64,000 nt of DNA, from the NCBI GenBank assembly GCA_934477125.1, contig CAKSOL010000004.1, forward strand, positions 106,664 to 170,663, read 5' to 3'. The position numbers and the translations under genes were made by a program. Origin of the DNA: an uncultured Eubacteriales bacterium. GTDB lineage: Bacteria; Bacillota; Clostridia; Oscillospirales; Acutalibacteraceae. The notes beneath the pieces are model-generated. The model was not told the DNA's origin, ran no database searches, and was given only the letters and a program-made list of their open reading frames with translations. Below are positions 19,789 to 64,000 of the stretch, piece after piece (the first letter of the stretch is position 1; the number at the start of each line of letters is the position of its first letter).

Positions 19789-19810
19789 AAAATCACCTTT
19801 TCGACTGTTG

Positions 19811-19830
19811 GATTTAAGACGTTAGATTTG
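19811..19830 (-). repeat. degenerate inverted partner of heptamer array (TTAGAYN units)
   Basis: TTAAGACGTTAGATTTG. Its reverse complement reads AATCTAA-CGTCTTA. Lies 22 nt from the forward array. Confidence 0.5.
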
Positions 19831-19851: not shown

Positions 19852-19886
19852 GGTCTAATATCTAACATCTAATGTCTAATGTCTAA
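19852..19886 (+). repeat. NNTCTAA heptamer tandem array (5 units)
   Basis: GGTCTAA-TATCTAA-CATCTAA-TGTCTAA-TGTCTAA. The last units encode the C-terminal RH and the TAG stop of fprA on the opposite strand. Confidence 0.85.
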
Positions 19887-26601: not shown

Positions 26602-26629
26602 TATCTAATATCTAATATCTAATATCTAA
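26602..26629 (+). repeat. TATCTAA heptamer tandem array (4 perfect units)
   Basis: TATCTAA x4 between convergent genes, adjacent to a hairpin embedded in the trmB 3' end. Confidence 0.85.
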
Positions 26630-28109: not shown

Positions 28110-28262
28110 TCCCAATAAAACATAAAAAGCCGCAGGCAATAAACCTGCGGCTTCTGACAGTTTCCGTAATTTTCCTACGGCGGCATTATCCGCATCAGGT
28201 TACAGGTCGGGATTTAAGCCTTGCGGCAAATCCCCTCTCAGCCGGGTTTCACCCAGCTCCCT
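28110..28262 (-). promoter_or_regulatory. TPP (THI-box) riboswitch with terminator expression platform
   Basis: Minus-strand aptamer at ~28172-28262 reads GGGAGCUGGGUGAAACCCGGCUGAGAGG...ACCUGUAACCUGAUGCGGAUAAUGCCGCCGUAGGAAA, matching the CUGAGA and ACCUGAU..GGAUAAUGCC..CGUAGGGAA THI-box cores. A GC hairpin (GCCGCAGGUUUAUUGCCUGCGGC) plus U-run follows at ~28110-28150, ahead of thiT. Confidence 0.85.
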
Positions 28263-28368
28263 TATTGCATTGAAATTATATCACCCTGCAAGCCGCTTGT
28301 CAAGCGGTTTTGACAGCACATACCGGAAAAGCGGCGGGCGCTTTGGCAAAATGCAGCGGTAAGGTCTG

Positions 28369-42615: not shown

Positions 42616-42650
42616 GGTCTAATGTCTAACATCTAATATCTAAAATCTAA
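42616..42650 (+). repeat. NNTCTAA heptamer tandem array (5 units) in DUF4317 promoter/leader
   Basis: GGTCTAA-TGTCTAA-CATCTAA-TATCTAA-AATCTAA. Preceded by degenerate TCAGA units (CGTCAGA-TGTCAGA). Ends 14 nt before the DUF4317 ATG. Confidence 0.85.
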
Positions 42651-42664
42651 CTTGGAGCCTTTTT

Positions 42665-45316: not shown

Positions 45317-45610
45317 ATGTGGGGTGACTGGATACCGGTCATAATTTTATCTGCTTGTGTAGTTGTTTTAATGGTCGAAACAGTCTCTGTTTTAAAAGTT
45401 TACAGAAATACCGAAAACGATGAAAAGAAACGAAAGGAACATAAAGCAGAAGCTGTCGCCTGCTTGGCTTTTGCAATAATAACTACTGTGTTTATTATTT
45501 TTTATATGATACCGAATGCCGTTTATTACAGTAACCATCCTATGACGGTTTCGGTATTTTTAAAGCCCGGTATACGCTTTTCGGCGTATACCGGGCTGTC
45601 TAATGTCTAA
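45317..45610 (+). CDS. small two-TM membrane protein (hypothetical)
   Basis: 97 aa in the AT-rich islet, driven by a consensus TTGACA-18-TATAAT promoter. Its C-terminus and stop codon are encoded by a hairpin plus the start of a heptamer array. Confidence 0.45.
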   Translation: MWGDWIPVIILSACVVVLMVETVSVLKVYRNTENDEKKRKEHKAEAVACLAFAIITTVFIIFYMIPNAVYYSNHPMTVSVFLKPGIRFSAYTGLSNV

Positions 45611-45639
45611 TGTCTAATATCTAATATCTAACGTCTAAT
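45598..45639 (+). repeat. NNTCTAA heptamer tandem array (6 units)
   Basis: TGTCTAA x3, TATCTAA x2, CGTCTAA. Supplies the TAA stop of the small membrane protein ORF and abuts the comM stop. Confidence 0.85.
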
Positions 45640-47266: not shown

Positions 47267-47287
47267 TGTCTATCGTCTAACGTCTAA
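47267..47287 (+). repeat. short NNTCTAA array (3 units plus degenerate tail)
   Basis: TGTCTAT-CGTCTAA-CGTCTAA then TTCTGAT. Lies between the comM start and the stop of the Cys-rich ORF. Confidence 0.7.
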
Positions 47288-49572: not shown

Positions 49573-49641
49573 CCATCTTCACCCCTTTATATTTCCTATT
49601 TTATACGCGCCGGGGCTTCAAATGGTGAATAATGTGTAAAT

Positions 49642-49676
49642 TTAGACGTTAGATGTTAGATTTTAGACGGTAGATG
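49642..49676 (-). repeat. heptamer array in inverted orientation (TTAGAYG units, 5 units)
   Basis: TTAGACG-TTAGATG-TTAGATT-TTAGACG-GTAGATG. The only array in reverse orientation. Paired with the forward array ~100 bp away. Confidence 0.8.
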
Positions 49677-49776: not shown

Positions 49777-49825
49777 GGTCTAAAATCTAAAATCTAACGT
49801 CTATTGTCTAATGTCTAACGTCTAA
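49777..49825 (+). repeat. NNTCTAA heptamer tandem array (7 units)
   Basis: GGTCTAA-AATCTAA-AATCTAA-CGTCTAT-TGTCTAA-TGTCTAA-CGTCTAA. Contains the stop of the 49808-50242 ORF. Confidence 0.85.
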
Positions 49826-50242
49826 TCTTCCCTTTTCGAGTCTTTTTGAAATCATTCCGGCGAACGGAACGCCGACAAAGCTCAGCAGCAGCCAGAAAAA
49901 CGAATAGAGCGCGCATATCTGCCCCGAAACGTTAAAGGGCATACGGCTGTAATCCCAAACGTTCTTTTTAAGAATAATATTGAAAACAACGCCGAAAATA
50001 TATTCGATACCGGTTATAAACGCGCTGCCTGCCGCCGCCTTTAAAAATCTTCCGCAGCGTTTCATCTGCCGGGAAATCGAGCTAAGCCCCAAAAACGAAA
50101 ATCCGCCGGCGCAGAGCATTGACCAATGGGTATAGCCGCGCCAGATGACCTCAATCATACCGTAGCCGCAGGCGCCGATTGAAAAAATTAAAAAATTACA
50201 CTTTCTTTTGCTCATAATTATCACCGAATATATTATTAGCAA
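49808..50242 (-). CDS. small polytopic membrane protein (PF06541/DUF1113-like)
   Basis: 4-TM protein with a GIEYIFG...NVWDYS pattern. Its stop lies within a heptamer array. Confidence 0.45.
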   Translation of the reverse strand: MLIIYSVIIMSKRKCNFLIFSIGACGYGMIEVIWRGYTHWSMLCAGGFSFLGLSSISRQMKRCGRFLKAAAGSAFITGIEYIFGVVFNIILKKNVWDYSRMPFNVSGQICALYSFFWLLLSFVGVPFAGMISKRLEKGRLDVRH

Positions 50243-50299: not shown

Positions 50300-50348
50300 A
50301 AAAAACATCAGGCTCCCCTGATAACGGGAAGCCTGACATTTATTTTTT
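50300..50348. terminator. bidirectional terminator between aroG (end of aro supraoperon) and upstream membrane protein gene
   Basis: CAGGCTCCCCTGATAACGGGAAGCCTG hairpin (one mismatch) flanked by an A-run on one side and a T-run on the other. Confidence 0.6.
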
Positions 50349-50428: not shown

Positions 50429-51457
50429 TTAAAGCGTATCCGCTATATCGAGTATCAGGCGCTCGGTTTTTTCCCAGCCGAGGCAGGGGTCGGTTATCGA
50501 CTGACCGAAAACGTGGTCCCCGATTTTCTGCGCCCCGTCAACAAGGTAGCTTTCTATCATAAGCCCCTTGACGAGCGAGCGGATTTCCGGATTATGGCGG
50601 CGGCTGTGAACAACGTCCTTGGCAATGCGTATCTGCTCCAAAAACTGCTTGCCGGAGTTCGCGTGGTTGCAGTCTACTATCGCAGCCGGGTTTTTAAGCC
50701 CCGATTCGCAGTAGAGAGAGTTCAGCTCCAGCAAATCCTCATAATGATAATTTGAAACGCAGCGTCCCGAAAAATCAACATAGCCGCGCAGTATCGCGTG
50801 GGCGTACTCATTTCCCCGGCTGCGCACCTCCCAGCCGCGGTAAATAAAGGTGTGGCTGTGCTGAGCGGCGGTTATCGAGTTCATCATAATCGAAAGGTCG
50901 CCGCCGGTCGGGTTTTTCATTCCGACAGGGATGCCGAGTCCGCTTGCGGTCAGGCGGTGCTGCTGATTTTCAACCGACCTCGCCCCTACCGCGACATAGG
51001 CGAGCAGGTCGGAAAGGTAGCGGTGGTTTTCGGGATAGAGCATTTCGTCCGCGCAGGTAAAGCCGAAGTCCCTCAGAGCGCTCATATGCAAATCCCTGAT
51101 AGCTAAAATTCCCTCAAGCATATTCGGCTTTTCGTCCGGATGAGGCTGATGCAGCATACCCTTATAGCCGGCGCCCGTCGTTCGCGGCTTGTTGGTATAT
51201 ATCCTCGGAATAATCAGGATTTTATCCCGAACCTTATCGGCAGCCGGACGCAGGCGGGAGATATATTCGAGAACCGGCTCGCGGCTTTCGGCGGAGCAGG
51301 GACCGATTATCAGCAGGAATTTATCGGATTCGCCCTTAAAAACTGCGGCAATCTCCTCATCGCGCCCGCGTTTTATTTTTTCCATTTCCTCCGACAGCGG
51401 ATAGCGGTTTTTTATCTGCTGAGGAATCGGCAGCTTCCTTTTAAATTCAAGATCCAT
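50429..51457 (-). CDS. aroG: 3-deoxy-7-phosphoheptulonate (DAHP) synthase, class I
   Basis: AroG/AroF-family motifs (IIGPCSAES, KPRTT, DCNHANS). Confidence 0.9.
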   Translation of the reverse strand: MDLEFKRKLPIPQQIKNRYPLSEEMEKIKRGRDEEIAAVFKGESDKFLLIIGPCSAESREPVLEYISRLRPAADKVRDKILIIPRIYTNKPRTTGAGYKGMLHQPHPDEKPNMLEGILAIRDLHMSALRDFGFTCADEMLYPENHRYLSDLLAYVAVGARSVENQQHRLTASGLGIPVGMKNPTGGDLSIMMNSITAAQHSHTFIYRGWEVRSRGNEYAHAILRGYVDFSGRCVSNYHYEDLLELNSLYCESGLKNPAAIVDCNHANSGKQFLEQIRIAKDVVHSRRHNPEIRSLVKGLMIESYLVDGAQKIGDHVFGQSITDPCLGWEKTERLILDIADTL

Positions 51458-51458
51458 T

Positions 51459-52361
51459 TCATTCTACCTCTTTTTCGCTTTCGGTCTGCGGCTTTGCCGC
51501 CGGTTTATCAAATCTCGCGCGGCGTTCGGTTGAGCAGCGCATCATTTTGCGCATACCCTCGCGGTCGTCATTGAGTATACAGGTGTATAGACAGTTGAAC
51601 GCCGATTTGAAGGCGTCCATTTCTTTCAGCAGCGCCTTGCGGTTGAGCAGGAACAGCTCGCTCCACATATCGTCGTTTATACGGGCAATCCGGGTAAGGT
51701 CGCGGAAGGAATCGCCGGTATAATGCTCAAGACCGGGGGTATCGTTTGCGCACATAAGCGACACGGCGATACAATGGGTAAGCTGAGAGAGAAAGGCTAT
51801 CATTTCGTCGTGAGCCGCAGGGGTAAGCCGGGAAACATCGGCAAAGCCAAGCTCGCGCCCCAGCTCCTCGCAAAGCTCAATCGCGCCCTGAGAATTTTTT
51901 TCGGTCGGGACAACGATATAATTAGCGCCCTCAAAAATGCGTTTATCGGCATTGCGGACGCCGTATACCTCGCGCCCTGCCATCGGGTGGGCGGCGATAA
52001 ATTCAACATCGGGACGCAGCAGGGACTGGATTTTACCGACGATACATTCCTTAACGCCGGTTACATCGGTTATAACCGCGCCGGGCTTTAAATATTTCTG
52101 ATTTTCCTCAATCCAGCTTACAAAAATATGGGGATAAAGCGCCGTTACAATCAAATCGGCGTTTCCGATAAGCCGCGGGTCGGGAAAATCCGCGCCCTCG
52201 GCTATCCAGCCGCGCTCCAGAGCATAATCAACCGAATCCCGGCTGCGGGTTATCGCGGCAATTCTGTATCCCTTATCGGACAGCGCCTCGGCATAGCTGC
52301 CTCCGAGCAGACCGAGACCGACTATTAAAATGTTCATCTGTTTATTCAGGTGTATATTCAC
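51459..52361 (-). CDS. tyrA: prephenate dehydrogenase
   Basis: Rossmann motif VGLGLLGGS plus a TyrA core. An internal Met at ~52337 is an alternative start. Confidence 0.85.
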   Translation of the reverse strand: MNIHLNKQMNILIVGLGLLGGSYAEALSDKGYRIAAITRSRDSVDYALERGWIAEGADFPDPRLIGNADLIVTALYPHIFVSWIEENQKYLKPGAVITDVTGVKECIVGKIQSLLRPDVEFIAAHPMAGREVYGVRNADKRIFEGANYIVVPTEKNSQGAIELCEELGRELGFADVSRLTPAAHDEMIAFLSQLTHCIAVSLMCANDTPGLEHYTGDSFRDLTRIARINDDMWSELFLLNRKALLKEMDAFKSAFNCLYTCILNDDREGMRKMMRCSTERRARFDKPAAKPQTESEKEVE

Positions 52362-52362
52362 A

Positions 52363-53574
52363 TCAATCAGCCTCCTCTATGGGTATTCCGAGTTTTCTCA
52401 TATCCTCAAAAAAGCGCGGATAGCTTTTCGAGACTGCCTGCGCGCCGGTTATAACGCCGCCGGTAAGCGAGCAGAGAACCGCAAGAGACATTACTATGCG
52501 ATGGTCGTTATGACCGCTCAGCGGCGCGGACGGGCGGCGCAGCATTCCTCCGGCGACGGTTACGCTGTTTTCCCCGATTTCAACCGGCACGCCGAGCTTT
52601 GCAAGCTCCTCGCGCATAGCCTCGGCGCGGTCGCTTTCCTTTATTTTAAGGCGCGCCGTTCCGACGAATTTTCCGCCGTTTTTCGCGGCGGCAACGGCAA
52701 ACATTATCGGCGCTAAGTCCGGGCAGTCGGAAAGGTCGATAACAGGGGGTTCGGGGCGGCAGAGCGCGCGGAAAAGCCCGCGGTAGACCCGGTCGCCCTG
52801 GAGAGTGTTTTCGTCGAGTCCCTCAACCGCAACCGAGCCGCCGAAAAGATTAAGGCATTCGGCAAACGCGGCGTTCGAGCAGTCGCCCTCAACACGCATT
52901 TCGCGGCTTCTAAAGGTCTGACCGCCGGGGATGCGGAAGGTGCGCCCGTCGAGCCGGGAGGCTCTTACGCCGAATTCCGCAAGGCTTTTTAAAGTAAGCC
53001 CGATATAGGATGCGCTTTCCATATTTCCGGAAACCGAAATAACGCTTTCTGCCGGCAGCCGGGGGAGCGCGAAAAGCATACCGCTTATAAACTGGCTCGA
53101 AACGCTGCCGTTTATCTCGAATTTTCCGGCTTTCAGCGGTCCGCAGACCGTAACGCAGCCGTTTTCCCGGCTGAAAGGCAGTCCCTGCTCCTTGCAGATT
53201 TCCTCATAAATACCGAGCGGCCGCTGCATCAGTCTGCCGCGGCCCGAAAGGGAGACAGGCGCGCCGCTCAAAAGGCTCAGCGGCAGCAGAAAGCGCAGGG
53301 TGCTGCCGCTCTCGCCGCAGTCGAGCAAAGGGCGGCGGGGCGGCGCAAAGGGGTTAAGACCGCCGATAACAACGCGGTTTTCCGATATATCGACCTCGGC
53401 GCCGAGACGGGAAAGGCAGGAAAGGGTAGCCTTTATATCCTCCGAAAAATCGACCCCCGAAATCTCGCTGCGCTCCGAGAGGGCCGCGCAGATGAGCAGT
53501 CTGTGCGCCATACTTTTTGAGGGCGGCGCGGTTATTTTTCCTGCCGCCTTATGGGGAGCTATTCTGACAGTCAT
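52363..53574 (-). CDS. aroA: 3-phosphoshikimate 1-carboxyvinyltransferase (EPSP synthase)
   Basis: PPSKSMAHR and LDCGESGSTLRFL motifs. Confidence 0.95.
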   Translation of the reverse strand: MTVRIAPHKAAGKITAPPSKSMAHRLLICAALSERSEISGVDFSEDIKATLSCLSRLGAEVDISENRVVIGGLNPFAPPRRPLLDCGESGSTLRFLLPLSLLSGAPVSLSGRGRLMQRPLGIYEEICKEQGLPFSRENGCVTVCGPLKAGKFEINGSVSSQFISGMLFALPRLPAESVISVSGNMESASYIGLTLKSLAEFGVRASRLDGRTFRIPGGQTFRSREMRVEGDCSNAAFAECLNLFGGSVAVEGLDENTLQGDRVYRGLFRALCRPEPPVIDLSDCPDLAPIMFAVAAAKNGGKFVGTARLKIKESDRAEAMREELAKLGVPVEIGENSVTVAGGMLRRPSAPLSGHNDHRIVMSLAVLCSLTGGVITGAQAVSKSYPRFFEDMRKLGIPIEEAD

Positions 53575-54011
53575 TTTTTATCACCGTTTTTTCCGAGAAG
53601 AATATCGACCGCGTCGCAGTAGCCGTCGAATCCGCGCCCGATAATTGTCGCAACACAGGCGGCGCGGATATAGCTTATCTGACGGAAGGTTTCCCTTTTT
53701 GAAAGCTCGCTTATATGCACCTCGACCGTCGGTATTCCGACCGCCCTTACCGCGTCCGGCAGAGCCACGCTCGTATGGGTATAGGCGCCGGGGTTTATTA
53801 TTATTCCGTCGATATTTCCGTAGGCTTTCTGAATTTCGTCTACCAAATCGCCCTCATGGTTCGACTGGTAAAAGCGCACCTCTGCTCCGCGCGCGGCGCA
53901 GAAGTCCTCAATTTTCCGGCAGAGGTCGGCATAGGTCGCGCTGCCGTAGATTTCAGGCTCGCGGACGCCGAGCATATTGAGATTAGGTCCGTTTATAACC
54001 AGTATTTTCAT
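53571..54011 (-). CDS. aroQ: type II 3-dehydroquinate dehydratase
   Basis: MKILVINGPNLNMLG, HISE and the AroQ core. Confidence 0.9.
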   Translation of the reverse strand: MKILVINGPNLNMLGVREPEIYGSATYADLCRKIEDFCAARGAEVRFYQSNHEGDLVDEIQKAYGNIDGIIINPGAYTHTSVALPDAVRAVGIPTVEVHISELSKRETFRQISYIRAACVATIIGRGFDGYCDAVDILLGKNGDKK

Positions 54012-55258
54012 TTTCCCGCCGCCTTTTTAATCTGATTTAAATTTTCTTCCAAATCGCCCTCGCAGACCGCTCTTTCGCCTGCCGCAAGATAAAGCGGACG
54101 GCGCGCGGCGTAAATCTTTCCGAGCTTTTCGCGGCTGTCGGAAAGAGGGCGGTCGCCGGTTACGGCAAGGCTCTCAAGAGGGCGGTCGACGAATATTATT
54201 TTTCCGTTTTCTCTGAGCGCGCGCATATTTTCCTCTCTTAAAACCGCGCCGCCGCCGGTTGAGATAACCGCGCTCTGGCAGGCGGCAAGCCGGGCGATAA
54301 CCGCGCTTTCGGCATCGCGGAAGCGGCTTTCTCCCTCGCCTGAGATTATCTGAGCCGGAGTTTTTCCGGTATCGCGCAGGATTTCCTCATCGGTATCCAG
54401 AAATTCAAAGCCCAAATCATCGGCAAGCCGTTTTCCGAGGGTCGATTTTCCGCAGCCCGGCATACCTACAAGCACGACGTTTTCCTTTTTATCAGCCATT
54501 TTCCGCCAGACGCGGCAGCAGGTGTCCTCAGGGAGGGTCTGCCCGGTAAAAAGCTCGGCGGCGGCAACCGCCTGGGCAACGAGCATATAAAGTCCGCCCG
54601 ACGCCGGAATACCGCGTTCAAGAGCCGAGACGACCAGCGCGGAGCGCAGGGGATTATAAACCGCATCCGCAACGCCGGAAAGTCCGCCGAAACGGGAAAT
54701 ATCCAGCGCGGCGCTCCCTCTGTTCGGGAACATTCCGCAGGGGGTAGTGTTGATTATGACCCCGGCATCGCTGTGGATCCGGTAAGCCTCGTCGTAGGCT
54801 ATGCAGTCCGCTTCTCCTGACCGGGAAAGGCGGTAAATTTCGCGCGCTCCGAGAGCCGAGGCCACAGCCGCCGCGGTTCTTGATGTTCCTCCGCCGCCTG
54901 CGATAAGCACCTTTTTGCCCGAAAGCTCAATTCCGTTATGCTTTAAAAGCGAGGTCATACCGAAAAAGTCGGTATTATAGCCGTAAAGTCTGCCGGAGCG
55001 GTTTACAATCGTATTGACCGCGCCTATTTTCTCTGCGGCGGCATCTATTTCGTCCAAAAACGGAATAACCGCCTGTTTATAGGGTATTGTAACGTTTATC
55101 GCCCGAAAATCCCGCTTTTTGAAAAATCCGGTCAGCTCGCTTTCCGAAAGCTCGCAAAGCTCATAATCATAATCGAAAAGATAGGAATGAATTTCCTTTG
55201 AAAAGCTATGAACAAGTCTTTTTCCGATACAGCCGTATTCCATTATTCCGCCAGCCAA
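54008..55258 (-). CDS. aroE: bifunctional shikimate dehydrogenase / shikimate kinase fusion
   Basis: The N-terminal ~270 aa are AroE-like (NVTIPYKQ, GAVNTI, GGGGTSR). The C-terminal ~150 aa are AroK (VGMPGCGKSTLGKRLADDLGFEFLDTD). Confidence 0.85.
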   Translation of the reverse strand: MAGGIMEYGCIGKRLVHSFSKEIHSYLFDYDYELCELSESELTGFFKKRDFRAINVTIPYKQAVIPFLDEIDAAAEKIGAVNTIVNRSGRLYGYNTDFFGMTSLLKHNGIELSGKKVLIAGGGGTSRTAAAVASALGAREIYRLSRSGEADCIAYDEAYRIHSDAGVIINTTPCGMFPNRGSAALDISRFGGLSGVADAVYNPLRSALVVSALERGIPASGGLYMLVAQAVAAAELFTGQTLPEDTCCRVWRKMADKKENVVLVGMPGCGKSTLGKRLADDLGFEFLDTDEEILRDTGKTPAQIISGEGESRFRDAESAVIARLAACQSAVISTGGGAVLREENMRALRENGKIIFVDRPLESLAVTGDRPLSDSREKLGKIYAARRPLYLAAGERAVCEGDLEENLNQIKKAAGK

Positions 55259-56337
55259 TCCGTTCCGTATTTTATTGCGAGCATATCGCAGAGAACCAGC
55301 GCGGTAAGGCTGTCGGCAACAACCCGCGCGCGGTGGGCGATAAAGGGGTCGTGTCTCCCGGCGGCGGCAAGCTCGGCGTTTTCGCGCGTTTTAACGTTAA
55401 CCGTCTGCTGAGGCAGGGAGATTGTAGGCGTAGGCTTTACCGTACAGCGGAAAACAAGCGGCATTCCGTTGGTTATTCCGCCGTTTATTCCGCCGTTATG
55501 GTTGGAGCGCGTTCTTACCTCGCCGTTTTCATCATAATAAAAGCTGTCGTTAGCCTCCGAGCCGCACATTCCGGCAAAGCCGGTTCCCTCGCCGAATTCA
55601 ACCGCCTTTACCGCCGGAATTGAAAACAGCGCGTGGGACAGGAGGCTCTCGGCGGAATCGAACCAGGGCTCTCCCAAGCCTGCCGGCAGACCGCAGACGG
55701 CGGTTTCCAATATTCCGCCGACGCTGTTGCCCTCAGCCTTTGCCGCAAGTATTTTTTCCCTCATTTTTTTCTCCGCTTCTCCGCTTAAAACCGGGAAAGC
55801 GAGAGACGAAAGGGCGTTTATATCCGCGCTAAGGTCGCCGAACGGGCGGTCGGCAATTCCGGCACAGGCGGCGATATGGGTTCCGATAAAAATGCCCTTT
55901 CTGCGCATAGCCGGGATAACCAGAGCCGCCGCGGCTACTAAAGGCGCGGTTATTCTTCCGCTGAAATGTCCGCCGCCGCGGGGGTCGGAAAAGCCGCGGT
56001 ATTTAACAAAGGCGGTGTAATCCGCGTGACCCGGACGCATTTTATCGGCGATTTCGGAATAATCCGCCGAGCGGACGTCCTTATTTTCTATTCTGATACA
56101 GACCGGCGCGCCGGTTGTAAAGCCGTTATAAACGCCGCTGTCGAGCGTAAAGGCGTCCTGCTCGCGGCGCGAGGTTGATTCCGCTCCCGACGGGCGGCGC
56201 AATGTCAGCTGAGAGGCGATAAACTCCCCGTCCACCGGCAGTCCCGGAGCAAGACCGTCAACAACGGCGCCTATCGCCCTGCCGTGGCTCTCGCCGAAAA
56301 GGGTTACGGTCAGCGCCGTTCCGAGGGTGTTTCTCAT
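55243..56337 (-). CDS. aroC: chorismate synthase
   Basis: LTVTLFGESHG and RPGHADY motifs. Confidence 0.95.
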   Translation of the reverse strand: MRNTLGTALTVTLFGESHGRAIGAVVDGLAPGLPVDGEFIASQLTLRRPSGAESTSRREQDAFTLDSGVYNGFTTGAPVCIRIENKDVRSADYSEIADKMRPGHADYTAFVKYRGFSDPRGGGHFSGRITAPLVAAAALVIPAMRRKGIFIGTHIAACAGIADRPFGDLSADINALSSLAFPVLSGEAEKKMREKILAAKAEGNSVGGILETAVCGLPAGLGEPWFDSAESLLSHALFSIPAVKAVEFGEGTGFAGMCGSEANDSFYYDENGEVRTRSNHNGGINGGITNGMPLVFRCTVKPTPTISLPQQTVNVKTRENAELAAAGRHDPFIAHRARVVADSLTALVLCDMLAIKYGTDWLAE

Positions 56338-57347
56338 AAAGCTCCCGCCTTTCTCAGCTCCTCAAAAAGCTCGTCTGTCGTTATGTCGCTCATTTCATAT
56401 TTCCCGATTTCGGGTACTCTTATTACGGTAAGGCGATTTCCGGCGCACTTTTTATCATGGCGCACAGCCTCGATAATTTTTTCCGGCTCGGCGGAAAACG
56501 AAACCGGCAGGTTAAGGCTTTTAAGCACCGGGACAAGTCTTTCCCTCACCTTTGGCGCGCACATCGGCACCATTCCCGCCGCGACGCACTCGCCGTGGTA
56601 AAAATTCTGCATATTATTAGCCGTTTCAATCGCGTGAGCCAGGGTATGACCGAAGTTGAGTATCTTGCGCAGTCCGCCCTCGCGCTCATCGTTCTCAACG
56701 ACGGCGCGCTTTATTTTAAGCGAACGCTCGATTATCTCGTCCATATGCTCGTCACAGCCGCCCTTTTCAAACAGGGCGAACAGCTCCGGGTCGCTCGTAA
56801 GCGACATTTTGACCGCCTCGGCAAGACCGTTTGAAATCTGTCTTTCGGGCAGGGTTTTCAGCACGTCCGTATCTATAATAACCCGTTTCGGCTGCCAGAA
56901 CGCGCCGACAATATTCTTATATCCGGCGAAATCGATAGCGGTTTTTCCGCCTATCGAGGAATCGACCTGAGAAAGAACGGTTGTCGGAATATTATAAAAA
57001 TCTATTCCGCGCATATAGCAGGCGGCGACAAAGCCGGCAAGGTCGCCGACGACCCCTCCGCCGACCGCGATTACGCAGTCGGTTCGCGTAAGCTCCATTT
57101 CGACCGCCTGTTTAAGCACATACAAAAACGACGCGGAGGTTTTGCTTTTCTCGCCCTGCGGCAGAACAACCGTCCGGCTGCCGCGGCAGAAGGAGGCGAC
57201 CGTTTCGGCATATTCCGCCGGAACGCCGTCGTCGGTTACAATAAGCGCGCGGCGGGAAAGGTCAAGCAGCTCGCCGGCTCTCGACAGCGCTCCGCGCTCC
57301 AGAATTATATCGTAGCCTCCGCTTTGGGTTTTAACAGGAATAATCAT
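56334..57347 (-). CDS. aroB: 3-dehydroquinate synthase
   Basis: Glycine-rich NAD-binding GGGVVGDLAGF motif and the AroB core. Confidence 0.9.
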   Translation of the reverse strand: MIIPVKTQSGGYDIILERGALSRAGELLDLSRRALIVTDDGVPAEYAETVASFCRGSRTVVLPQGEKSKTSASFLYVLKQAVEMELTRTDCVIAVGGGVVGDLAGFVAACYMRGIDFYNIPTTVLSQVDSSIGGKTAIDFAGYKNIVGAFWQPKRVIIDTDVLKTLPERQISNGLAEAVKMSLTSDPELFALFEKGGCDEHMDEIIERSLKIKRAVVENDEREGGLRKILNFGHTLAHAIETANNMQNFYHGECVAAGMVPMCAPKVRERLVPVLKSLNLPVSFSAEPEKIIEAVRHDKKCAGNRLTVIRVPEIGKYEMSDITTDELFEELRKAGAL

Positions 57348-57353
57348 TTTTTA

Positions 57354-58442
57354 TCATCTCGCCAATTCTTTTTCGTAGCTGCCGACAACCTTTACGTTGT
57401 TGCAGCAGTATTTCAGTTCTTCAAGCATTTTTTCGCCCTCGGCGCTGTTTATGTTTCCCTCGCCCTCGGCATAGAAATAATAGCTCCAGATAAGCTCGCG
57501 GTTGGGGCGGCTTTTGAGCGCGCGCAGGTTAAAGCCGCAGCGGCCGATAACCGATATCGCGCGGGAAAGCGCTCCGGCAACGTTATTGACCGTGAAAAGC
57601 AGGATAAATCTGCCGTCGTTTTCGCCGCCGTCGCGTTTTGTTCTCGAAAAGACCGCAAAGCGCGTCGTATTGTCGTTTTCCTCGTTTATCCCGGCTTGCA
57701 GAACGCGCAGACCGTATCTTTCAGCCGCCTCGGCGCTGCCTATCGCCGCAAGGGACGCGTCGCCGCTTTCGGCTACCCTTTTCGCCGCAACAGCGGTATT
57801 GACAGCCTCAAGCGTTTCAAGACCGCGGTCGCTGATAAACTTTGCGCACTGTCCGAGCGCCTGTGGGTGGCTTATAACGGTTTTGATTTTGTCAATTTCC
57901 GCGTCCTCGGTTCCGAGGAGGTTCTGAACAATCGAAATATCGTATACCCCGTTTATAAACAGCGAGCCGGAAAAGGCAAGGTCCATAACCTGACCGACGT
58001 CCCCGTTACTGCTGTTTTCAACCGGCAGAACCGCGCAGTCGCACTCTCCGTTCACAACCGCATTATAGGCGGCGCGGAAATCGGGGTAGGCTATGGCGGC
58101 GGCGTCCGGAAAAATGCGGCAGGCGGCAACGTTCGCGAACGCTCCCTCAACTCCGCTGAAGGCGGCGCGCATACCGTCCATCAGTCTGTGCTGCATGGCG
58201 CGGGATATCTCCATATTCGCCTGCAAAAACCGCACGAAATACGAGCGGTATTCCTCATTTTCGATAAGCGCCGCGTTTTTCGCGATAACCTCCTGCTCGC
58301 GCGAGGGGTCGAACACCTGCAGGCCGCGTTCCTTTTTATAAGCCGCAACCTGCTTTACCGCGTCCATACGTCTGACAAACAGCCTTGCAAGGCTTGCGTC
58401 AACCTCGTTTATCTCCTTCCGCGCCCTTTCAAGCTCTGTCAT
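57354..58442 (-). CDS. pheA: bifunctional chorismate mutase / prephenate dehydratase
   Basis: N-terminal AroQ-class chorismate mutase (RKEINEVDASLARLFVRRM), then a PDT domain and an ACT domain (ESRP motif variant SRPNRELIWSY). Confidence 0.9.
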   Translation of the reverse strand: MTELERARKEINEVDASLARLFVRRMDAVKQVAAYKKERGLQVFDPSREQEVIAKNAALIENEEYRSYFVRFLQANMEISRAMQHRLMDGMRAAFSGVEGAFANVAACRIFPDAAAIAYPDFRAAYNAVVNGECDCAVLPVENSSNGDVGQVMDLAFSGSLFINGVYDISIVQNLLGTEDAEIDKIKTVISHPQALGQCAKFISDRGLETLEAVNTAVAAKRVAESGDASLAAIGSAEAAERYGLRVLQAGINEENDNTTRFAVFSRTKRDGGENDGRFILLFTVNNVAGALSRAISVIGRCGFNLRALKSRPNRELIWSYYFYAEGEGNINSAEGEKMLEELKYCCNNVKVVGSYEKELAR

Positions 58443-59629
58443 TTATTCTCCCCCCGGTATTCTTCAATAAGCGCGCGGAATGCAGGCAGGGAACGGCGGA
58501 TTGTATCGCTGTCGAGGCAGTAGGCTATTCTGACGTAGCCCTCATAGCCGAATGAGTCGCTCGGAACGAGCAGCAGCTCATATTTCTTAGCCCGCTCGGC
58601 GAATGCCGCCGCGCTTTTTTCGGGAGACTTCATAAACAGGTAGAACGCGCCGTCCGGCTTAACGACGGTATACCCCATTTCGGTCAGAGCACCGTAGAAA
58701 ATATCGCGGTTCTCGCGGTATACCGAAATATCGGCGGTTTGGTCAACGCAGTCGCGTATAACATACTGCATAAGGCTCGGCGCGCAGACAAAGCCGAGCG
58801 CTCTGCCTGCTCCGCAGACCGCCGCCCAGACGTCGGCGGCGTTTTCGATTTTCGGCGAAACAAATATATAGCCTATGCGCTCGCCCGGCAGGGAAAGCGA
58901 CTTGCTGTATGAGTAGCAGACGAGGGTGTTCGGATAAAACAGCGGAATATACGGCACCTCGGCATCGTATGCCAGCTCGCGGTAGGGCTCGTCCGCGATA
59001 ATGAATATCTCGCTGCCGAATTCTTTTTGCTTTTCTTTAAGCAGAGCCGCCAGCCGTTCAATCGTATCGCGGGAGAAAACCGCGCCGGTCGGGTTATTCG
59101 GCGAGTTTACTATAACCGCCTTTGTTTTTTCGTTTACCGCCCCGGCGAGAGCGTCGAAGTCTATCTGGAAATCCCCCTCGCGGCATTTAACGACGCGGAG
59201 TTCCGCTCCTGCCTTTTCGGCGAAAACGCGGTATTCCGGGAAGAAAGGAGCGAGGACTATAACCTCGTCGCCCGGATTTACTATTGCATTCAGCGAAACG
59301 GTAAGGGACGCCGCCGCGCCGCAGGTCATATAAATATGGGCGGCGTCCGCCTCGGCGCCGAAGCAGCGGCGGATATGCTCCGCTATCGCCTCTCTTGTAC
59401 CGAGGTCGCCGGGAGCGGAGGTGTAGCCGTGGAGCGAAACGGGGTCGCCTGCGGCAAGGCGTGTTATAGCCTCGGCAACGGCAGGGGGTGCCGGTATGCT
59501 CGGATTGCCGATACTGAAATCGAAAACGTTTTCATCGCCTATTTCGGCGCGGCGCTTTTTCGCATACTCGAATATCTCGCGGATAACCGAGCTTTTTCTG
59601 CCGAGTTCAGCCATTTTTTCTGAAATCAT
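58439..59629 (-). CDS. class I/II PLP-dependent aminotransferase (aromatic/aspartate aminotransferase)
   Basis: SPNNPTG and SYSKSLSLPGERIG (PLP lysine) motifs. The start was trimmed to MISEK, which has a GGAGGT SD. First structural gene of the aro supraoperon. Confidence 0.85.
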   Translation of the reverse strand: MISEKMAELGRKSSVIREIFEYAKKRRAEIGDENVFDFSIGNPSIPAPPAVAEAITRLAAGDPVSLHGYTSAPGDLGTREAIAEHIRRCFGAEADAAHIYMTCGAAASLTVSLNAIVNPGDEVIVLAPFFPEYRVFAEKAGAELRVVKCREGDFQIDFDALAGAVNEKTKAVIVNSPNNPTGAVFSRDTIERLAALLKEKQKEFGSEIFIIADEPYRELAYDAEVPYIPLFYPNTLVCYSYSKSLSLPGERIGYIFVSPKIENAADVWAAVCGAGRALGFVCAPSLMQYVIRDCVDQTADISVYRENRDIFYGALTEMGYTVVKPDGAFYLFMKSPEKSAAAFAERAKKYELLLVPSDSFGYEGYVRIAYCLDSDTIRRSLPAFRALIEEYRGENK

Positions 59630-59720
59630 AAATTTACCTCCGAAAATAAAAGAGCCCGCAAATGCGCCGCCCTTTAAGGGCAACGCGAAATGCGGACTCC
59701 GAAATACCTCTTTTGCGGCT

Positions 59721-59798
59721 TTACCGAGCCGCTGACGGGGTGTTCAGGTCCGCGATGTTAAAGAAGTAATAATAAGAAAACGCAAATGCTTTTTTCAT
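59721..59798 (-). CDS. Phe/Tyr-rich leader peptide (MKKAFAFSYYYFFNIADLNTPSAAR) of the aro supraoperon
   Basis: 25-codon minus-strand ORF with a GGAG SD 6 nt upstream. It carries 4 Phe and 3 Tyr within 9 consecutive codons, and is followed by GC hairpins and a U-run immediately before the aminotransferase RBS. Confidence 0.6.
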   Translation of the reverse strand: MKKAFAFSYYYFFNIADLNTPSAAR

Positions 59799-59864
59799 AA
59801 CGGACTCCGACACCTCTCTTTTTTCATTTTTTATTTATTTACATTTTAAACCCTCTGCGCGGAT

Positions 59865-59892
59865 TTGTCAAGAGGAAATTAGACGGTATAAT
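59865..59892 (+). promoter_or_regulatory. sigma-A promoter of pyk; transcript leader begins with a heptamer array
   Basis: TTGTCA, 16-nt spacer, TATAAT. The NNTCTAA array starts ~12 nt downstream of the -10 box. Confidence 0.5.
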
Positions 59893-59903
59893 TTAACGTC
59901 ACA

Positions 59904-59938
59904 GGTCTAATGTCTAACGTCTAACGTCTAACATCTAA
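59904..59938 (+). repeat. NNTCTAA heptamer tandem array (5 units) in pyk leader
   Basis: GGTCTAA-TGTCTAA-CGTCTAA-CGTCTAA-CATCTAA. Located between the pyk -10 box and its RBS. Confidence 0.85.
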
Positions 59939-59995
59939 ATTTATGTCTATTTTCCGCGGAAAACGCGCATAATATTGCTGACACAGGAGGGAATT

Positions 59996-61405
59996 ATGAG
60001 AAAAACGAAAATTATCTGCACTCTCGGTCCGAACTGCCGGGATATCGGCACTCTCGAAAAAATGCTTGCCGGCGGAATGGACGCCGCAAGGCTCAATTTT
60101 TCACATCAGAACCATTCCTTTCACCGCGAAAACATCGAAACGGTAAAGGAACTGCGGCGAAGAACCGGAAAGCCGCTCGCGCTGATTTTAGACACAAAGG
60201 GTCCCGAAATACGGACGGGGTTGCTTGAGGGCGGAGCGGCGGAGCTTAAAGCCGGAGAAAAAACCGTTTTATCCGCGGCGGCAGGAGAGGGAAACGCCCG
60301 GCTTATCGGAATAAGCCTTCCGGGTCTTGCCGATACCTTAAATCCCGGCGACATTATTTTAATAGATGACGGAAAAATAAAGTTAGCCGTTGATAAAATA
60401 AGCGGCGGCGAGATTTCCTGCGAAATTCTGCGCGGAGGAATACTCGGAAACACGCGCGGAGTAAATCTGCCGGGAATCGACACCGACATACCCTTTTTAT
60501 CCGAGCGCGACCGCGCCGACCTGCTTCTCGGCATCGAGCAGGGGGTGGACTATGTTGCCGCGTCGTTCGTGCGCTCGGCGGAGGACGTTCGTCAAATGCG
60601 GCGGTTCTTATGCGACAACGGCGGCGGAGATATACGCATTATCTCGAAAATCGAAAGCCGTTCGGCGGTAAAACGGTTTGAGGATATATTAAAGGAAAGC
60701 GACGGAATAATGGTAGCTCGCGGCGACCTCGGAGTTGAGGTGCCGTTTGAGCGGCTGCCGGGCTTGCAGAAAAAAATGATTTCCCTTTGCTACAAAAGCG
60801 GAAAAATGGCGGTTACGGCAACCCAGATGCTTGAAAGTATGATTTCCGGGGGCGACCCGACCCGCGCCGAAATAAGCGACGTTGCCAACGCCGTTTTCGA
60901 TATGACGAGCGCGGTTATGCTTTCGGGGGAGACGGCGATAGGAAAGGACCCTGCGGCGGTTGTTGAGGCGATGGCACGGATATGCTCCCGCGCTCAGGAG
61001 GACTGCGGCAGCTTTTGCACTGCCTGCCGCCGGGAACAGCCGGAACCCCTGTGCGACGCGACCGACGCGGTATGCGCGGCGGCGGTTACGGCGGCTGAAA
61101 GCATAAATGCAGCCGCGATAATCGCGGTTACGGCGAACGGGCGGACGGCGCGGCTTGCGGCGAAATACCGTCCCTCAATTCCGATAATTGCCGCCGCATT
61201 TTCCGAGAGGGTTTTCAATCAGCTTGCCGCGAACTGGGGAGTTATTCCGCTTTTGACCGAGCCGGAGCAAAACCCGGCGCGCGCCTTTGAAAGGGCGGCG
61301 GAGACGGCGGAGCGGCTCGGACTTATAAGGAGCGGCGACCGGCTGGTTCTGGTCTGCGGAGCGTCCCCCTCCTCGCCGGGGCATAATATGCTGAGGATTG
61401 TTTGA
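59996..61405 (+). CDS. pyk: pyruvate kinase
   Basis: MRKTKIICTLGP and MVARGDLGVE motifs. AGGAGG RBS. The track ORF starts at an upstream TTG. Confidence 0.95.
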   Translation: MRKTKIICTLGPNCRDIGTLEKMLAGGMDAARLNFSHQNHSFHRENIETVKELRRRTGKPLALILDTKGPEIRTGLLEGGAAELKAGEKTVLSAAAGEGNARLIGISLPGLADTLNPGDIILIDDGKIKLAVDKISGGEISCEILRGGILGNTRGVNLPGIDTDIPFLSERDRADLLLGIEQGVDYVAASFVRSAEDVRQMRRFLCDNGGGDIRIISKIESRSAVKRFEDILKESDGIMVARGDLGVEVPFERLPGLQKKMISLCYKSGKMAVTATQMLESMISGGDPTRAEISDVANAVFDMTSAVMLSGETAIGKDPAAVVEAMARICSRAQEDCGSFCTACRREQPEPLCDATDAVCAAAVTAAESINAAAIIAVTANGRTARLAAKYRPSIPIIAAAFSERVFNQLAANWGVIPLLTEPEQNPARAFERAAETAERLGLIRSGDRLVLVCGASPSSPGHNMLRIV

Positions 61406-61680: not shown

Positions 61681-61829
61681 CACCTTGTAAGCGAAAAACC
61701 GCTTTTTCAGCGGTTTTTCAAGGGCGCCGGGGTGGTATTGGCGGGGATGGAGTGCAGTCAAAAATCTTTGATTTTTGCGAGCGGAATTCCCGCCAAAGAG
61801 CGCAGCGACTGTTGCGGAGTGTTAAAAAA

Positions 61830-63149
61830 ATGGCTATTCAATCTATCGGCGACATCTGGAGCGCCGTATGCGAGGAATGTAAAAAAAACATATCTTCTAT
61901 CACATTCGACTGCTTTTTAAAGGACCTAAAGCCCGTTTCAATCGACGCGGGGGTCTTTACAATCTCTATCAACAACGAGTACTTAAAAGACCTTATCGAA
62001 AAGAATTATTCCGACCTGCTCAAGACCTCGATAACGGTCGTTATGGGTATTCCTATGGAGCCGGTTATCATTCTTGAGGACGACGAGGAGAAAATCCGCA
62101 ATGCCGAGGAGCACTGCGAGGGGCTTACCTTTGAGGATTTCTTTACGTTTGACAATTTTATTGTCGGCTCTACCAACCGTTTTGCCCAGGCGGCTTCCTT
62201 TGCGGTTGCGGACAATCCTAACATAATATACAATCCGCTCGTTATCTACGGCAATTCGGGAGTCGGGAAAACTCACCTTATTTTAGCTATCAAAAATCAC
62301 ATAAAGAAGAAGTATCCCTCAAAGAAAATCGCCTATGTCCGCAGCGAGGACTTTACGAACCAGCTTATTCAGGCGATAGCTCTGGGCGCAGAGGCGGTTG
62401 ACGATTTTCACGCGAAGTACCGCGGAGTTGATATTCTGCTGATAGACGATATTCAGTTTATCGCCGGAAAGGAATCTACTCAGGAGGAGTTTTTCAATAC
62501 CTTCAACACGCTGCACCAGAACAACAAGCAGATTGTCGTTACGATGGACCGTCCGCCCAAAGAGATAAAGCTGCTTGACGACCGTATACGCTCGCGCTTT
62601 GAAAGCGGACTTTTCGCCGACATAACTCCGCCGGACTTTGAAACGAGGGTCGGAATTATCAACAAGAAGGCGGAGCAGGTACATATAAATATAGACGAAA
62701 ATCTTGTTTACTACATCGCCGAGCATATCAAGGACAACACGCGTCAGCTTGAGGGCGTTGTCAAAAAGCTGCACGCTTATATTTCCATTCAGGGCAAAAT
62801 TCCGTCGCTTTCGGTTGTTCAGGGCTTTATAAGGGACGTTATAAACGACACGCGCCCGGAGCCTATCAAAACCGAAAAGATAATATCCGAGGTTGCGAGA
62901 ACCTATAACGTTACCGAAAACGACATTCTTTCCAACCGCAGAACGGCGCCGCTTGCGCTTGCGCGGCAGGTTGCGATGTATATAGCGAGAAAAACGACCG
63001 ACCTTTCCTATAAGGAAATAGGCGAGGCTTTCGGAAAGGATCACACCACCGTGCTTTATAATGTAAAGCAGATAGAGAAGTTTTTATGGGACAAGCCCTA
63101 CGAAAAGGAGCTTGTTGACGACATTATAAAGAATTTGCAGGGGTCTTGA
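61830..63149 (+). CDS. dnaA: chromosomal replication initiator protein DnaA
   Basis: AAA+ motifs (GNSGVGKTHL, LLIDDIQF), DnaA box-binding domain IV (RQVAMYIARKTTDLSYKEIG). The start was trimmed to MAIQSIGDIW. Confidence 0.95.
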   Translation: MAIQSIGDIWSAVCEECKKNISSITFDCFLKDLKPVSIDAGVFTISINNEYLKDLIEKNYSDLLKTSITVVMGIPMEPVIILEDDEEKIRNAEEHCEGLTFEDFFTFDNFIVGSTNRFAQAASFAVADNPNIIYNPLVIYGNSGVGKTHLILAIKNHIKKKYPSKKIAYVRSEDFTNQLIQAIALGAEAVDDFHAKYRGVDILLIDDIQFIAGKESTQEEFFNTFNTLHQNNKQIVVTMDRPPKEIKLLDDRIRSRFESGLFADITPPDFETRVGIINKKAEQVHINIDENLVYYIAEHIKDNTRQLEGVVKKLHAYISIQGKIPSLSVVQGFIRDVINDTRPEPIKTEKIISEVARTYNVTENDILSNRRTAPLALARQVAMYIARKTTDLSYKEIGEAFGKDHTTVLYNVKQIEKFLWDKPYEKELVDDIIKNLQGS

Positions 63150-63177
63150 AAATAAGTACGCCGATAAAAACCGATTT

Positions 63178-63231
63178 TTTGCGGCGGAACGCCGCACTTT
63201 CGTTTTTCCGCTGACAGGCGCGGCGGAAAAA
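63178..63231 (+). other. conserved ~55-nt two-hairpin element, copy 3 (between dnaA stop and oriC/dnaN)
   Basis: TTGCGGCGGAACGCCGCACTTTCGTTTTTCCGCTGACAGGCGCGGCGGAAAAATACCC. The GCGGCG/CGCCGC stem is conserved while the loop varies (TTCA, GAA, TTTT). Confidence 0.7.
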
Positions 63232-63334
63232 TACCCTTTAAGCGAAGAAATCCCGGCTTAAAGTTATCAACTTATCAATGTTAATTAACATTTCGGTTTT
63301 TAACAGGACGGTTGATAATTAAAGGTTATTCATT

Positions 63335-63480
63335 TTATCCACATTTTTATTTTACTTTCTTTCCACAGGGAAATTTATCTTATATAAAGGCGCGGCAGGG
63401 GTTATCCACCGTTTTAACCGCCCCTATTATTTACTACTATTTTTATATTTATTATATACGCAAAATTTTGAAAATTTGAG
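63335..63480. other. oriC core between dnaA and dnaN: DnaA boxes plus AT-rich DNA unwinding element
   Basis: Perfect TTATCCACA at ~63335-63343, TTTCCACAG at ~63358 and TTATCCACC at ~63402-63410. An AT-rich run (TATTATTTACTACTATTTTTATATTTATTATATACG) follows at ~63425-63480. Confidence 0.7.
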
Positions 63481-63531
63481 TTTTCAGCTGTTTTTCGGTT
63501 TTCGGAGAACGGCGGCAAAGGAGATTAAAAA

Positions 63532-64000
63532 ATGACAGTTACCGTTGAAAGAGCAAAGCTGCTTGAGGGCGTTCAGAAGCTGCAGAGAGCCGTAGGAGCA
63601 AAAAGCACGATGCCTGTGCTTGAGGGTATTCTGATTTCAGCCGAAAAGGGACTTATAACTCTTTCCTCCTATAACCTCGAAATAGGAATGAAAAAGGAAA
63701 TGTATGCGCAGTGCGAAAAGGAGGGCGATATCGTTATCAACGCCCGGCTGCTTGCGGACATTCTGAGGAAGATGAACAGCTTACAGGTTGAAATAACCGC
63801 TGATGAAAAGCTGCTCTGCCATATCAGCGGAGGCGGCGCGGTTTTCGATATTATGGGAATGGCGGCGACGGATTATCCCGAAATGCCCTCCGTTGCCGAT
63901 GGAACGCGCATTGAAATCGACAGCAAGCTTTTCAGCAAAATGGTTTCGGGAACTATTTTCTCGGTTGCGCAGGTTGAGGGAACGCGGCCGATACTGACGG
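63532..64000 (+). CDS. dnaN: DNA polymerase III beta sliding clamp, N-terminal part (runs off window)
   Basis: MTVTVERAKLLEGVQKLQRAV... with GGAG RBS. Canonical dnaA-dnaN order. Confidence 0.9.
   Translation, partial: MTVTVERAKLLEGVQKLQRAVGAKSTMPVLEGILISAEKGLITLSSYNLEIGMKKEMYAQCEKEGDIVINARLLADILRKMNSLQVEITADEKLLCHISGGGAVFDIMGMAATDYPEMPSVADGTRIEIDSKLFSKMVSGTIFSVAQVEGTRPILT

Follow-up and report, generated by a model that had tools for sequence, protein, structure and literature searches.

How is the synthesis of phenylalanine (Phe) and tyrosine (Tyr) controlled in uncultured Oscillospirales? The question is raised by a 64,000-nucleotide (nt) stretch of DNA from an uncultured Eubacteriales bacterium of the family Acutalibacteraceae (contig CAKSOL010000004.1, positions 106,664 to 170,663; the whole stretch is referred to below as the window), in which a nine-gene aromatic amino acid operon on the minus strand is preceded by a leader containing a short upstream open reading frame (uORF) rich in Phe and Tyr codons. 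The original prediction, made from the letters of the DNA alone, read this leader as a leader-peptide attenuator. That reading is supported by the conservation of the uORF, by mutually exclusive RNA folds, by compensatory base changes and by the lack of any T-box, Rfam or TRAP match to the leader. Every defining feature of a classical attenuator that can be tested computationally was found, and the leader is very probably a ribosome-mediated transcription attenuator of the classical type, with charged tRNA-Phe and tRNA-Tyr as its signals. Computation established the sequence elements and their conservation, as well as the reading frame, three helices with covariation and the link to the operon.

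Elements of the leader

The positions of all features are collected in Table 1. The leader and operon share a sigma-70-type promoter that matches the consensus at 11 of 12 positions, and a comparable promoter of the TTGACA/TAAAAT type is found at the equivalent relative position in relatives. An A-rich stretch lies between the promoter and the ribosome-binding site of the leader. The uORF is present in the sequence as originally described, with the same coordinates, the same GGAG Shine-Dalgarno (SD) sequence and the same peptide, in which Phe and Tyr occupy seven of the nine positions from codon 5 to codon 13. When the 216-nt leader was shuffled with its dinucleotide composition preserved, a uORF with at least seven Phe/Tyr codons in nine appeared once in 20,000 shuffles, and one with at least six in 24 of 20,000. 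A chance origin of the Phe/Tyr-rich uORF is excluded; the 44 related loci that carry the leader (see below) settle the question.

Downstream of the uORF lies an intrinsic terminator, the hairpin of which has GCCCUUAAAGGGC at its tip and GGAGUCCGCA / UGCGGGCUCU at its base. It was missed by a simple terminator pattern scan because of its internal loops and was revealed by folding. The GC-rich hairpins and T-run between the uORF and the first structural gene had been interpreted as overlapping alternative stems. The terminator is indeed there, but the supposed separate stems turned out to be the upper and lower parts of a single terminator hairpin; the true alternative pairing partners in the window, 59753-59743 and 59814-59801, lie upstream of it. 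The stop codon of the uORF is found in the loop of a small hairpin, and, as a qualitative observation, a hairpin at or adjoining the leader stop codon is also seen in the folds of many relatives.

Conservation of the leader in relatives

Related loci were collected by a genome scan seeded with the aminotransferase protein (the product of the first operon gene) only, which yielded 30 loci, and by a metagenome scan seeded with an alignment of the aminotransferase and seven orthologues, six of them from leader-bearing loci, which yielded 80 further loci. The loci of close relatives belong to metagenome-assembled genomes of Acutalibacteraceae, Ruminococcaceae and Oscillospiraceae from goat caecum, rumen and human gut. 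The best related locus is only 75% identical to that of the window, and the species to which the window belongs is therefore absent from the set.

An aromatic-rich leader open reading frame (ORF) is conserved at the orthologous position in 44 of 109 related loci (Acutalibacteraceae/Oscillospirales genomes and metagenomes), and its presence tracks the aminotransferase-pheA-aroB context. As judged by tblastn searches with the pheA and aroB products of the window, the leader is present in 42 of the 50 loci that have pheA after the aminotransferase gene and for which upstream DNA is available, and in none of the 56 loci without pheA downstream of the aminotransferase gene; two further leader-bearing loci end too early for the pheA linkage to be judged. 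In the 44 loci the leader consists of a Phe/Tyr-rich uORF, 20-25 codons long, and a terminator downstream of it, and lies 86-154 nt 5' of the aminotransferase start. Typical leader peptides in these relatives are MFGYIAYRFYYYSTDCLCAHKA, MIRNFVFRFFYFINADCLCTE, MFGKEFYFYYYFSTDCLPSFKNAAE and MFAKVDFSYFYYFTSADRQCTRAVN. The upstream neighbour gene in most relatives differs from the pyruvate kinase gene (pyk) found in the window, and the leader therefore moves with the operon and not with the neighbourhood. A covariance model constructed from 41 leaders recovered L037, a member on which it had not been trained, at 95 bits, and a search of the whole window and 60 loci with this model (325 kb) retrieved no second copy of the leader.

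The 5' regions of some relatives show other arrangements. Between the promoter and the start codon of some leaderless aminotransferase-pheA-aroB relatives there is a palindrome, GTTAACAATGTTAAC or GGTTAACACTGATAACC (Table 1), which suggests that attenuation has there been replaced by a DNA-binding repressor. The leaderless loci L014, L057, L061 and L088 possess a bare short 5' untranslated region. In L084 an extra GC-rich hairpin region (GCUGCGCCGCAUAAAUGCGGCUUCGGCGC..., L084:895-962) has been inserted 3' of the leader terminator, ahead of the aminotransferase start; the leader stop and the aminotransferase ATG are 154 nt apart in this locus versus 86-113 nt in most others.

Translation of the uORF

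Only translation of the uORF sets a leader-peptide attenuator apart from other switches of the terminator/antiterminator type, and coding signatures were counted across 41 aligned leaders. An SD-like site and an ATG, GTG or TTG start are found in all 41, with predicted anti-SD duplexes of -5 to -13 kcal/mol. Frame 0 contains no stop codons, versus 18 and 64 in the other two frames, and 285 of its 886 codons (32%) encode Phe or Tyr, versus 70 and 72 such codons out of frame. Both synonymous codons are used for each amino acid (TTT 100 times and TTC 28 times; TAT 103 times and TAC 54 times), Phe and Tyr interchange between aligned leaders, and the insertions and deletions within the ORF are all multiples of 3. 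No codon for tryptophan (Trp; TGG) occurs in any of the 41 leaders. Since the Phe/Tyr run lies in the unpaired loop of the helix formed by regions 1 and 2 (see below), these constraints on frame and codons are not explicable by RNA structure.

Directly 5' of a Phe-Tyr-Tyr core, the Arg codon CGA is conserved at the nucleotide level (UAUCGAUUUUAUUAC) in 34 of the 41 leaders, though it is located in the unpaired loop. A Ser codon (UCU or UCG) takes its place in the window and in the relatives closest to it. CGA might serve here as a codon meant to be read slowly, or as a signal for pausing.

Three alternative helices

The leader transcript contains four segments, regions 1 to 4, for which three mutually exclusive pairings are predicted: the anti-antiterminator (1:2), the antiterminator (2:3) and the terminator (3:4). 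Folding of the window leader bears out the mutually exclusive stems that had been anticipated, with energies of -36.0 kcal/mol for the terminator, -31.1 kcal/mol for the antiterminator (59753-59743 with 59703-59692) and -22.0 kcal/mol for the anti-antiterminator (59814-59801 with 59752-59738). The antiterminator consists of 11 base pairs with a bulged A59698 (RNAfold). Positions 59801-59822 and 59693-59714 form an 82% direct repeat; as regions 1 and 3 are both complementary to region 2, this repeat is the footprint of the switch design.

The same helices emerge from comparative analysis. Unguided RNAalifold folding of the first 16 leaders returned the terminator stem together with a long-range helix in which the SD/start region pairs with the segment directly following the Phe/Tyr run, and when these leaders were refolded without regions 1 and 4, region 2 paired with the 5' arm of the terminator in 16 of 16. 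Pairs were then counted in a 41-sequence MAFFT alignment that had not been fitted to any structure, with partners slid by 1-3 columns as the control. For the anti-antiterminator and terminator taken together, 89.4% of the cells are paired versus 34-52% in the slid controls, with compensatory changes in 10 of 21 pairs; the anti-antiterminator alone is 82-93% paired across the alignment, and the lower stem of the terminator is 96.9% paired in 40 distinct sequences, with compensatory changes in five of eight pairs. The corresponding values for the antiterminator are 91.7% versus 21-42%, with compensatory changes in five of ten pairs, and its pairing score was reached by none of 500 shuffles. Mean duplex energies amount to -19.0 kcal/mol for 1:2, -17.9 kcal/mol for 2:3 and -14.1 kcal/mol for the terminator when only its lower stem is considered; that of 2:3 corresponds to z = -3.7 relative to shuffled region 2. 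Covariation of regions 2, 3 and 4 can also be read by eye: L038, L039 and L045 have GGAUUG / CAAUCU / GCAGAU, versus GGACUG / CAGCCC / GCGGGC in most others.

The spacing of these elements is constrained as well. Region 2 begins 4 or 7 nt past the last Phe/Tyr codon in all 41 leaders, and the leader stop codon is located 20-35 nt past the start of region 2, in the loop of the small hairpin inside the 2:3 loop. A further candidate pairing, between a conserved CGAUU in the Phe/Tyr run and AAUCG in the terminator arm, was rejected as it is not conserved across clades.

Proposed mechanism

Transcription would start at about 59836, and a ribosome would load on the leader SD and translate the uORF while RNA polymerase continues along the leader. 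When Phe and Tyr are both plentiful, the ribosome would pass region 2 and reach the stop codon; as this codon is enclosed in the loop that separates regions 2 and 3, the terminating ribosome would prevent the 2:3 pairing, 3:4 would form and transcription would terminate 5' of the aminotransferase gene. Under a shortage of either amino acid the ribosome would stall in the Phe/Tyr run, that is, in the loop closed by 1:2, leaving region 2 free. Region 2 would pair with region 3 once the latter is made, the terminator would be blocked and the nine genes would be transcribed. If the uORF is not translated, 1:2 and 3:4 would be expected to form, leading to termination. Ribosome stalling, its timing relative to RNA polymerase and the response to the Phe/Tyr supply are the presumptive components of this scheme.

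Several considerations weigh against this interpretation. Control of operon read-through by Phe and Tyr is something that we infer from the leader. Eight pheA-linked relatives lack the leader, indicating that the element is dispensable in some lineages, and the leader sequences share kinship, so that the covariation counts given above are partly inherited. With -36.0 versus -31.1 kcal/mol, the terminator is favoured over the antiterminator at equilibrium, and the choice of fold must therefore be kinetic. Kinetic switching is the usual assumption for classical attenuators as well, and in stepwise folding of the growing transcript 2:3 persists until the last bases of region 4 emerge. The geometry raises a further difficulty. 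By the usual dimensions of a ribosome footprint, region 1 would remain uncovered when the ribosome stalls, as would region 2 when it terminates at the stop codon, so that exclusion would have to be steric. A ribosome stalled at the last Phe/Tyr codon would, moreover, cover the first bases of region 2; given the gap of 4-7 nt between the run and region 2, the effective stalls would have to occur at earlier Phe/Tyr codons.

As the stalled and terminating ribosomes would not cover regions 1 and 2, respectively, we tentatively propose loop occupancy, though we consider it rather doubtful that the geometry amounts to a distinct variant of attenuation. In such a variant the ribosome would decide by occupying one of two nested loops and not by covering pairing segments; 1:2 would shut the leader ribosome-binding site after the first ribosome, allowing a single 'pioneer' ribosome per transcript; and, through its mixed Phe/Tyr run, a single switch would sense two amino acids on behalf of the whole common pathway, with no regard to Trp.

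Alternative explanations

The three alternative helices would serve any antitermination mechanism, and the very high conservation of region 2 would also be compatible with a binding site for a ligand or a protein. The leader might accordingly be a real RNA switch that is operated by uncharged tRNA (T-box-like), by an RNA-binding protein (TRAP-like or PyrR-like) or by a small molecule (riboswitch), with an incidental uORF. We regard this as very improbable. None of the Rfam 15 families, including T-box (RF00230), scored above its gathering threshold at the leader when the whole window and eight relatives were searched, and a search of 59400-60200 at E values of up to 10 returned noise only, with no T-box. 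A TRAP site comprises about 9-11 (G/U)AG triplets, whereas the longest chain of such triplets with spacers of 2-3 nt is two in any of the 41 leaders and one in the window. The unpaired segment between regions 1 and 2 has an open frame, frame-specific Phe/Tyr codons, synonymous variation and indels in multiples of 3, a combination that only translation explains, and the two alternative pairings of region 2 account for its conservation. Slightly less probable still is a role for the nascent leader peptide itself as sensor or effector, either through TnaC-like arrest by free Phe or Tyr or through peTrpL-like action in trans, with the R-F-Y-Y core and the (T/A)-D-C-L tail as candidate motifs. Peptide motifs are indeed conserved beyond the aromatic run (RFYY in most leaders, as is DCL), the Arg codon CGA is retained in 34 of 41 leaders, and trans-acting leader peptides are known (PMC7298713). 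The T-D-C-L tail is, however, coded by ACGGACUGCCUG, which is region 2 itself, and its conservation is therefore explained by RNA pairing. The window peptide (FSYYYFF...ADL) has neither RFYY nor DCL, yet the Phe/Tyr run and the helices are kept. For a biosynthetic operon, starvation sensing by codons has the correct regulatory sign, whereas TnaC-type sensing of excess has the wrong one.

We consider it least probable of all that the uORF and hairpin are constitutive (a leaky terminator, an insulator or an mRNA-stabilising 5' structure) and that real control is exerted at the DNA level, for instance at a heptamer array 5' of the -35 box. Such an array of 6.4 copies (59894-59938) does lie between the divergent pyk and the operon promoter, and some leaderless relatives have palindromic operator-like sites instead of the leader, e.g. 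GTTAACAATGTTAAC in L017 and L018. Heptamer arrays occur at about ten intergenic sites of the window, however, and are not operon-specific; this dispersal led us to reject the array as an operator dedicated to the operon. A constitutive terminator needs neither a covarying antiterminator and anti-antiterminator nor a translated frame rich in Phe/Tyr codons, and a DNA-level regulator could coexist with attenuation and is thus no true alternative to it. Ribosome-mediated attenuation in response to Phe and Tyr is the reading that we retain.

The operon and other features of the window

All nine genes of the aromatic operon claimed in the original prediction were confirmed by Pfam (Table 1). Neighbouring genes, from 59629 to 50429, overlap or have at most 6 nt between them, which leaves no space for internal intergenic signals. 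The operon encompasses the common shikimate pathway, the Phe branch and the Tyr branch. Its upstream neighbour, pyk, is divergently transcribed.

Table 1. Coordinates of the leader, the operon and other features (window positions unless a locus or alignment is named).
Feature	Position	Strand	Remarks
Sigma-70-type promoter of leader and operon	59843-59871	-	-35 TTGACA 59871-59866; 17-nt spacer; -10 TAAAAT 59848-59843
Leader-peptide SD GGAG	59805-59808	-	6 nt 5' of ATG
Leader peptide uORF	59721-59798	-	ATG 59798-59796; TAA 59723-59721; 25 sense codons; peptide MKKAFAFSYYYFFNIADLNTPSAAR
Regulatory codon run	59760-59786	-	codons 5-13 = F A F S Y Y Y F F (4 Phe, 3 Tyr)
Region 1, 5' arm of anti-antiterminator	59801-59814	-	covers leader SD; 82% direct repeat of region 3
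Region 2, GCGGACCUGAACACCC	59738-59753	-	leader codons 16-21; pairs with region 1 or region 3
Region 3, UUCGGAGUCCGC	59692-59703	-	3' arm of antiterminator and 5' arm of terminator
Region 4	59660-59651	-	U-run directly after
Small hairpin GCGGCU-CGGUAA-AGCCGC	59715-59732	-	leader stop UAA in loop; inside antiterminator loop
Intrinsic terminator	59643-59700	-	hairpin 59700-59651 (-36.0 kcal/mol), then UUUAUUUU at 59650-59643
Class I/II aminotransferase, pyridoxal phosphate-dependent, presumed aromatic (first gene)	58439-59629	-	PF00155; NF005305, 552 bits; SD GGAGG 59641-59637; ATG at 59629
pheA, chorismate mutase-prephenate dehydratase	57354-58442	-	Pfam, NCBIfam
aroB, 3-dehydroquinate synthase	56334-57347	-	Pfam, NCBIfam
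aroC, chorismate synthase	55243-56337	-	Pfam, NCBIfam
aroE-aroK, shikimate dehydrogenase-shikimate kinase fusion	54008-55258	-	one 416-aa protein; Pfam, NCBIfam
aroQ, type II dehydroquinase	53571-54011	-	Pfam, NCBIfam
aroA, 5-enolpyruvylshikimate 3-phosphate (EPSP) synthase	52363-53574	-	Pfam, NCBIfam
tyrA, prephenate dehydrogenase	51459-52361	-	Pfam, NCBIfam
3-deoxy-D-arabino-heptulosonate 7-phosphate (DAHP) synthase, AroFGH-type (last gene)	50429-51457	-	Pfam, NCBIfam
Terminator-like hairpin and T-run, likely operon end	50306-50323	-	about 100 nt past DAHP synthase stop; pattern match only
Conserved Arg codon CGA	A3 alignment columns 52-54; e.g. L002:2860-2880
Palindrome-bearing leaderless loci	L017:2900-3000, L018:2900-3000, L074:1400-1500, L081:1400-1500		GTTAACAATGTTAAC in both L017 and L018
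Tandem heptamer RTCTAAY arrays	670-697, 19807-19827(-), 19853-19887, 26603-26630, 42617-42651, 45598-45639, 47268-47287, 49641-49668(-), 49778-49826, 59894-59939		3-7 copies

The tandem RTCTAAY arrays, found at about ten sites, are all intergenic, and eight of the ten are in one orientation. Matches to GTCTAAYGTCTAA with at most two mismatches number 34 in the window versus 1.4 expected by chance. The arrays could be a dispersed binding-site array or a REP-like (repetitive extragenic palindromic) element. In front of the equivalent promoter, another tandem motif (TTTAAAGC, three copies) is found in some relatives.

A likely replication origin is located at 63150-63532, between dnaA (61752-63149) and dnaN (from 63533), in an AT-rich stretch with DnaA-box-like TTATCCACA / GGTTATCCACC sites. 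A 55-codon ORF in this region (63312-63479), with a YYYFYIYY run, was considered as a second attenuator and rejected as a chance frame in the AT-rich dnaA-dnaN origin region. The sole Rfam family found in the window is a thiamine pyrophosphate riboswitch (RF00059) at 28154-28273 on the minus strand, with a score of 59.5 bits, above the gathering score.

Significance

The leader is mechanistically unsurprising, and it is informative on the amino acid economy of uncultured gut and rumen Clostridia. The short list of amino-acid leader-peptide attenuators of Bacillota is extended by a well-supported RNA family of 45 instances (44 loci and the window) in which all three helices show covariation. 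In the abundant uncultured Oscillospirales of gut and rumen, one translation-coupled switch would govern the whole of the Phe/Tyr supply, beginning with DAHP synthase and ending with the final aminotransferase, and would do so without the T-box or TRAP systems assumed for the phylum. Aromatic amino acid prototrophy under Phe and Tyr, but not Trp, regulation is predicted for these organisms. In annotation, the covariance model can be applied to a region that gene callers leave blank or label as a hypothetical small protein. The leader is also a potential compact natural Phe/Tyr-responsive part for use in Clostridia. Finally, the occurrence of a leader, a palindromic operator or nothing among close relatives points to repeated gain, loss or replacement and offers a useful case of regulatory turnover.

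Comparison with known systems

The leader resembles the pheL-pheA (RF01859) and trp attenuators of Escherichia coli in having a short uORF rich in codons for the end-product amino acids, the 1:2, 2:3 and 3:4 helices and an intrinsic terminator located 5' of the first biosynthetic gene; as in pheL-pheA, chorismate mutase-prephenate dehydratase is encoded by the first or second gene downstream. No match to Phe_leader RF01859 or to the other proteobacterial leader families (Trp, His, Leu, Thr) was obtained on 59400-60200 at E values of up to 10. Unlike pheL, which has Phe codons alone and precedes pheA alone, the leader described here has mixed Phe and Tyr codons and precedes nine genes, including the whole common pathway and tyrA. 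Region 1 corresponds to the leader SD/start region, whereas in the E. coli pheL-pheA and trp attenuators it contains the regulatory codons. The stop codon is again placed differently from the E. coli systems, well 3' of region 2 and within the antiterminator loop. The hosts differ as well, being Clostridia here and Gammaproteobacteria there.

The original prediction considered leader-peptide attenuation of an aromatic operon unusual for Firmicutes. This was overstated, as precedents in Bacillota exist for ilv-leu, his and the Acholeplasma aroF gene, although the mechanism is uncommon in the phylum all the same. The closest functional precedent that we found is the uORFC-13-1 motif of Acholeplasma aroF, in which an intrinsic terminator comes after a predicted uORF with Phe codons (Brewer et al. 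2021, PMC8632094). Compared by description only, it shares with our leader a downstream shikimate-pathway gene and a host that groups with Firmicutes/Bacillota. It differs in its hosts, Acholeplasma and environmental sequences, in having aroF only as its downstream gene, and in its U-run, which is described as encoding one or more Phe residues and for which no Tyr component is reported, versus Phe and Tyr here. Other leader-peptide attenuators documented or predicted in Bacillota are those of ilv-leu in Staphylococcus aureus (PMC5794164) and Listeria (Rli60; PMC5864092), of leuA in Streptococcus (PMC5314783), the leu/phe leader of Lactococcus (RF01743) and the his leaders of the Bacillus cereus group, Peptostreptococcaceae and Erysipelotrichales (PMC9413887, PMC2965389). 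The ilv-leu and his leaders share the mechanism class and the phylum with the leader described here, but sense other amino acids and control other operons; with them, classical attenuation extends beyond Proteobacteria and Actinobacteria. The Lactococcus leu/phe leader (RF01743) gave 15.9 bits (E = 9.2) against a gathering score of 70, which is noise. Neither a mixed Phe/Tyr leader nor a clostridial aromatic operon under leader-peptide control was found to have been reported in openly searchable full texts, subscription-only papers (e.g. Panina et al. 2003, FEMS Microbiol Lett) lying outside this search.

The aromatic supraoperon of Bacillus subtilis, controlled by TRAP, and the T-box-controlled aromatic genes of Bacilli and Clostridia likewise combine a multi-gene operon with a terminator/antiterminator switch in the leader. 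The sensor is TRAP with bound Trp in the former and uncharged tRNA in the latter, whereas the leader described here has neither a triplet array nor a T-box; with no Trp codon in any of the 41 leaders, Trp would not be sensed, unlike in the case of TRAP. The leader is absent from Rfam 15 and represents a new RNA family within a known class of regulators; the layout of its helices is somewhat unusual.

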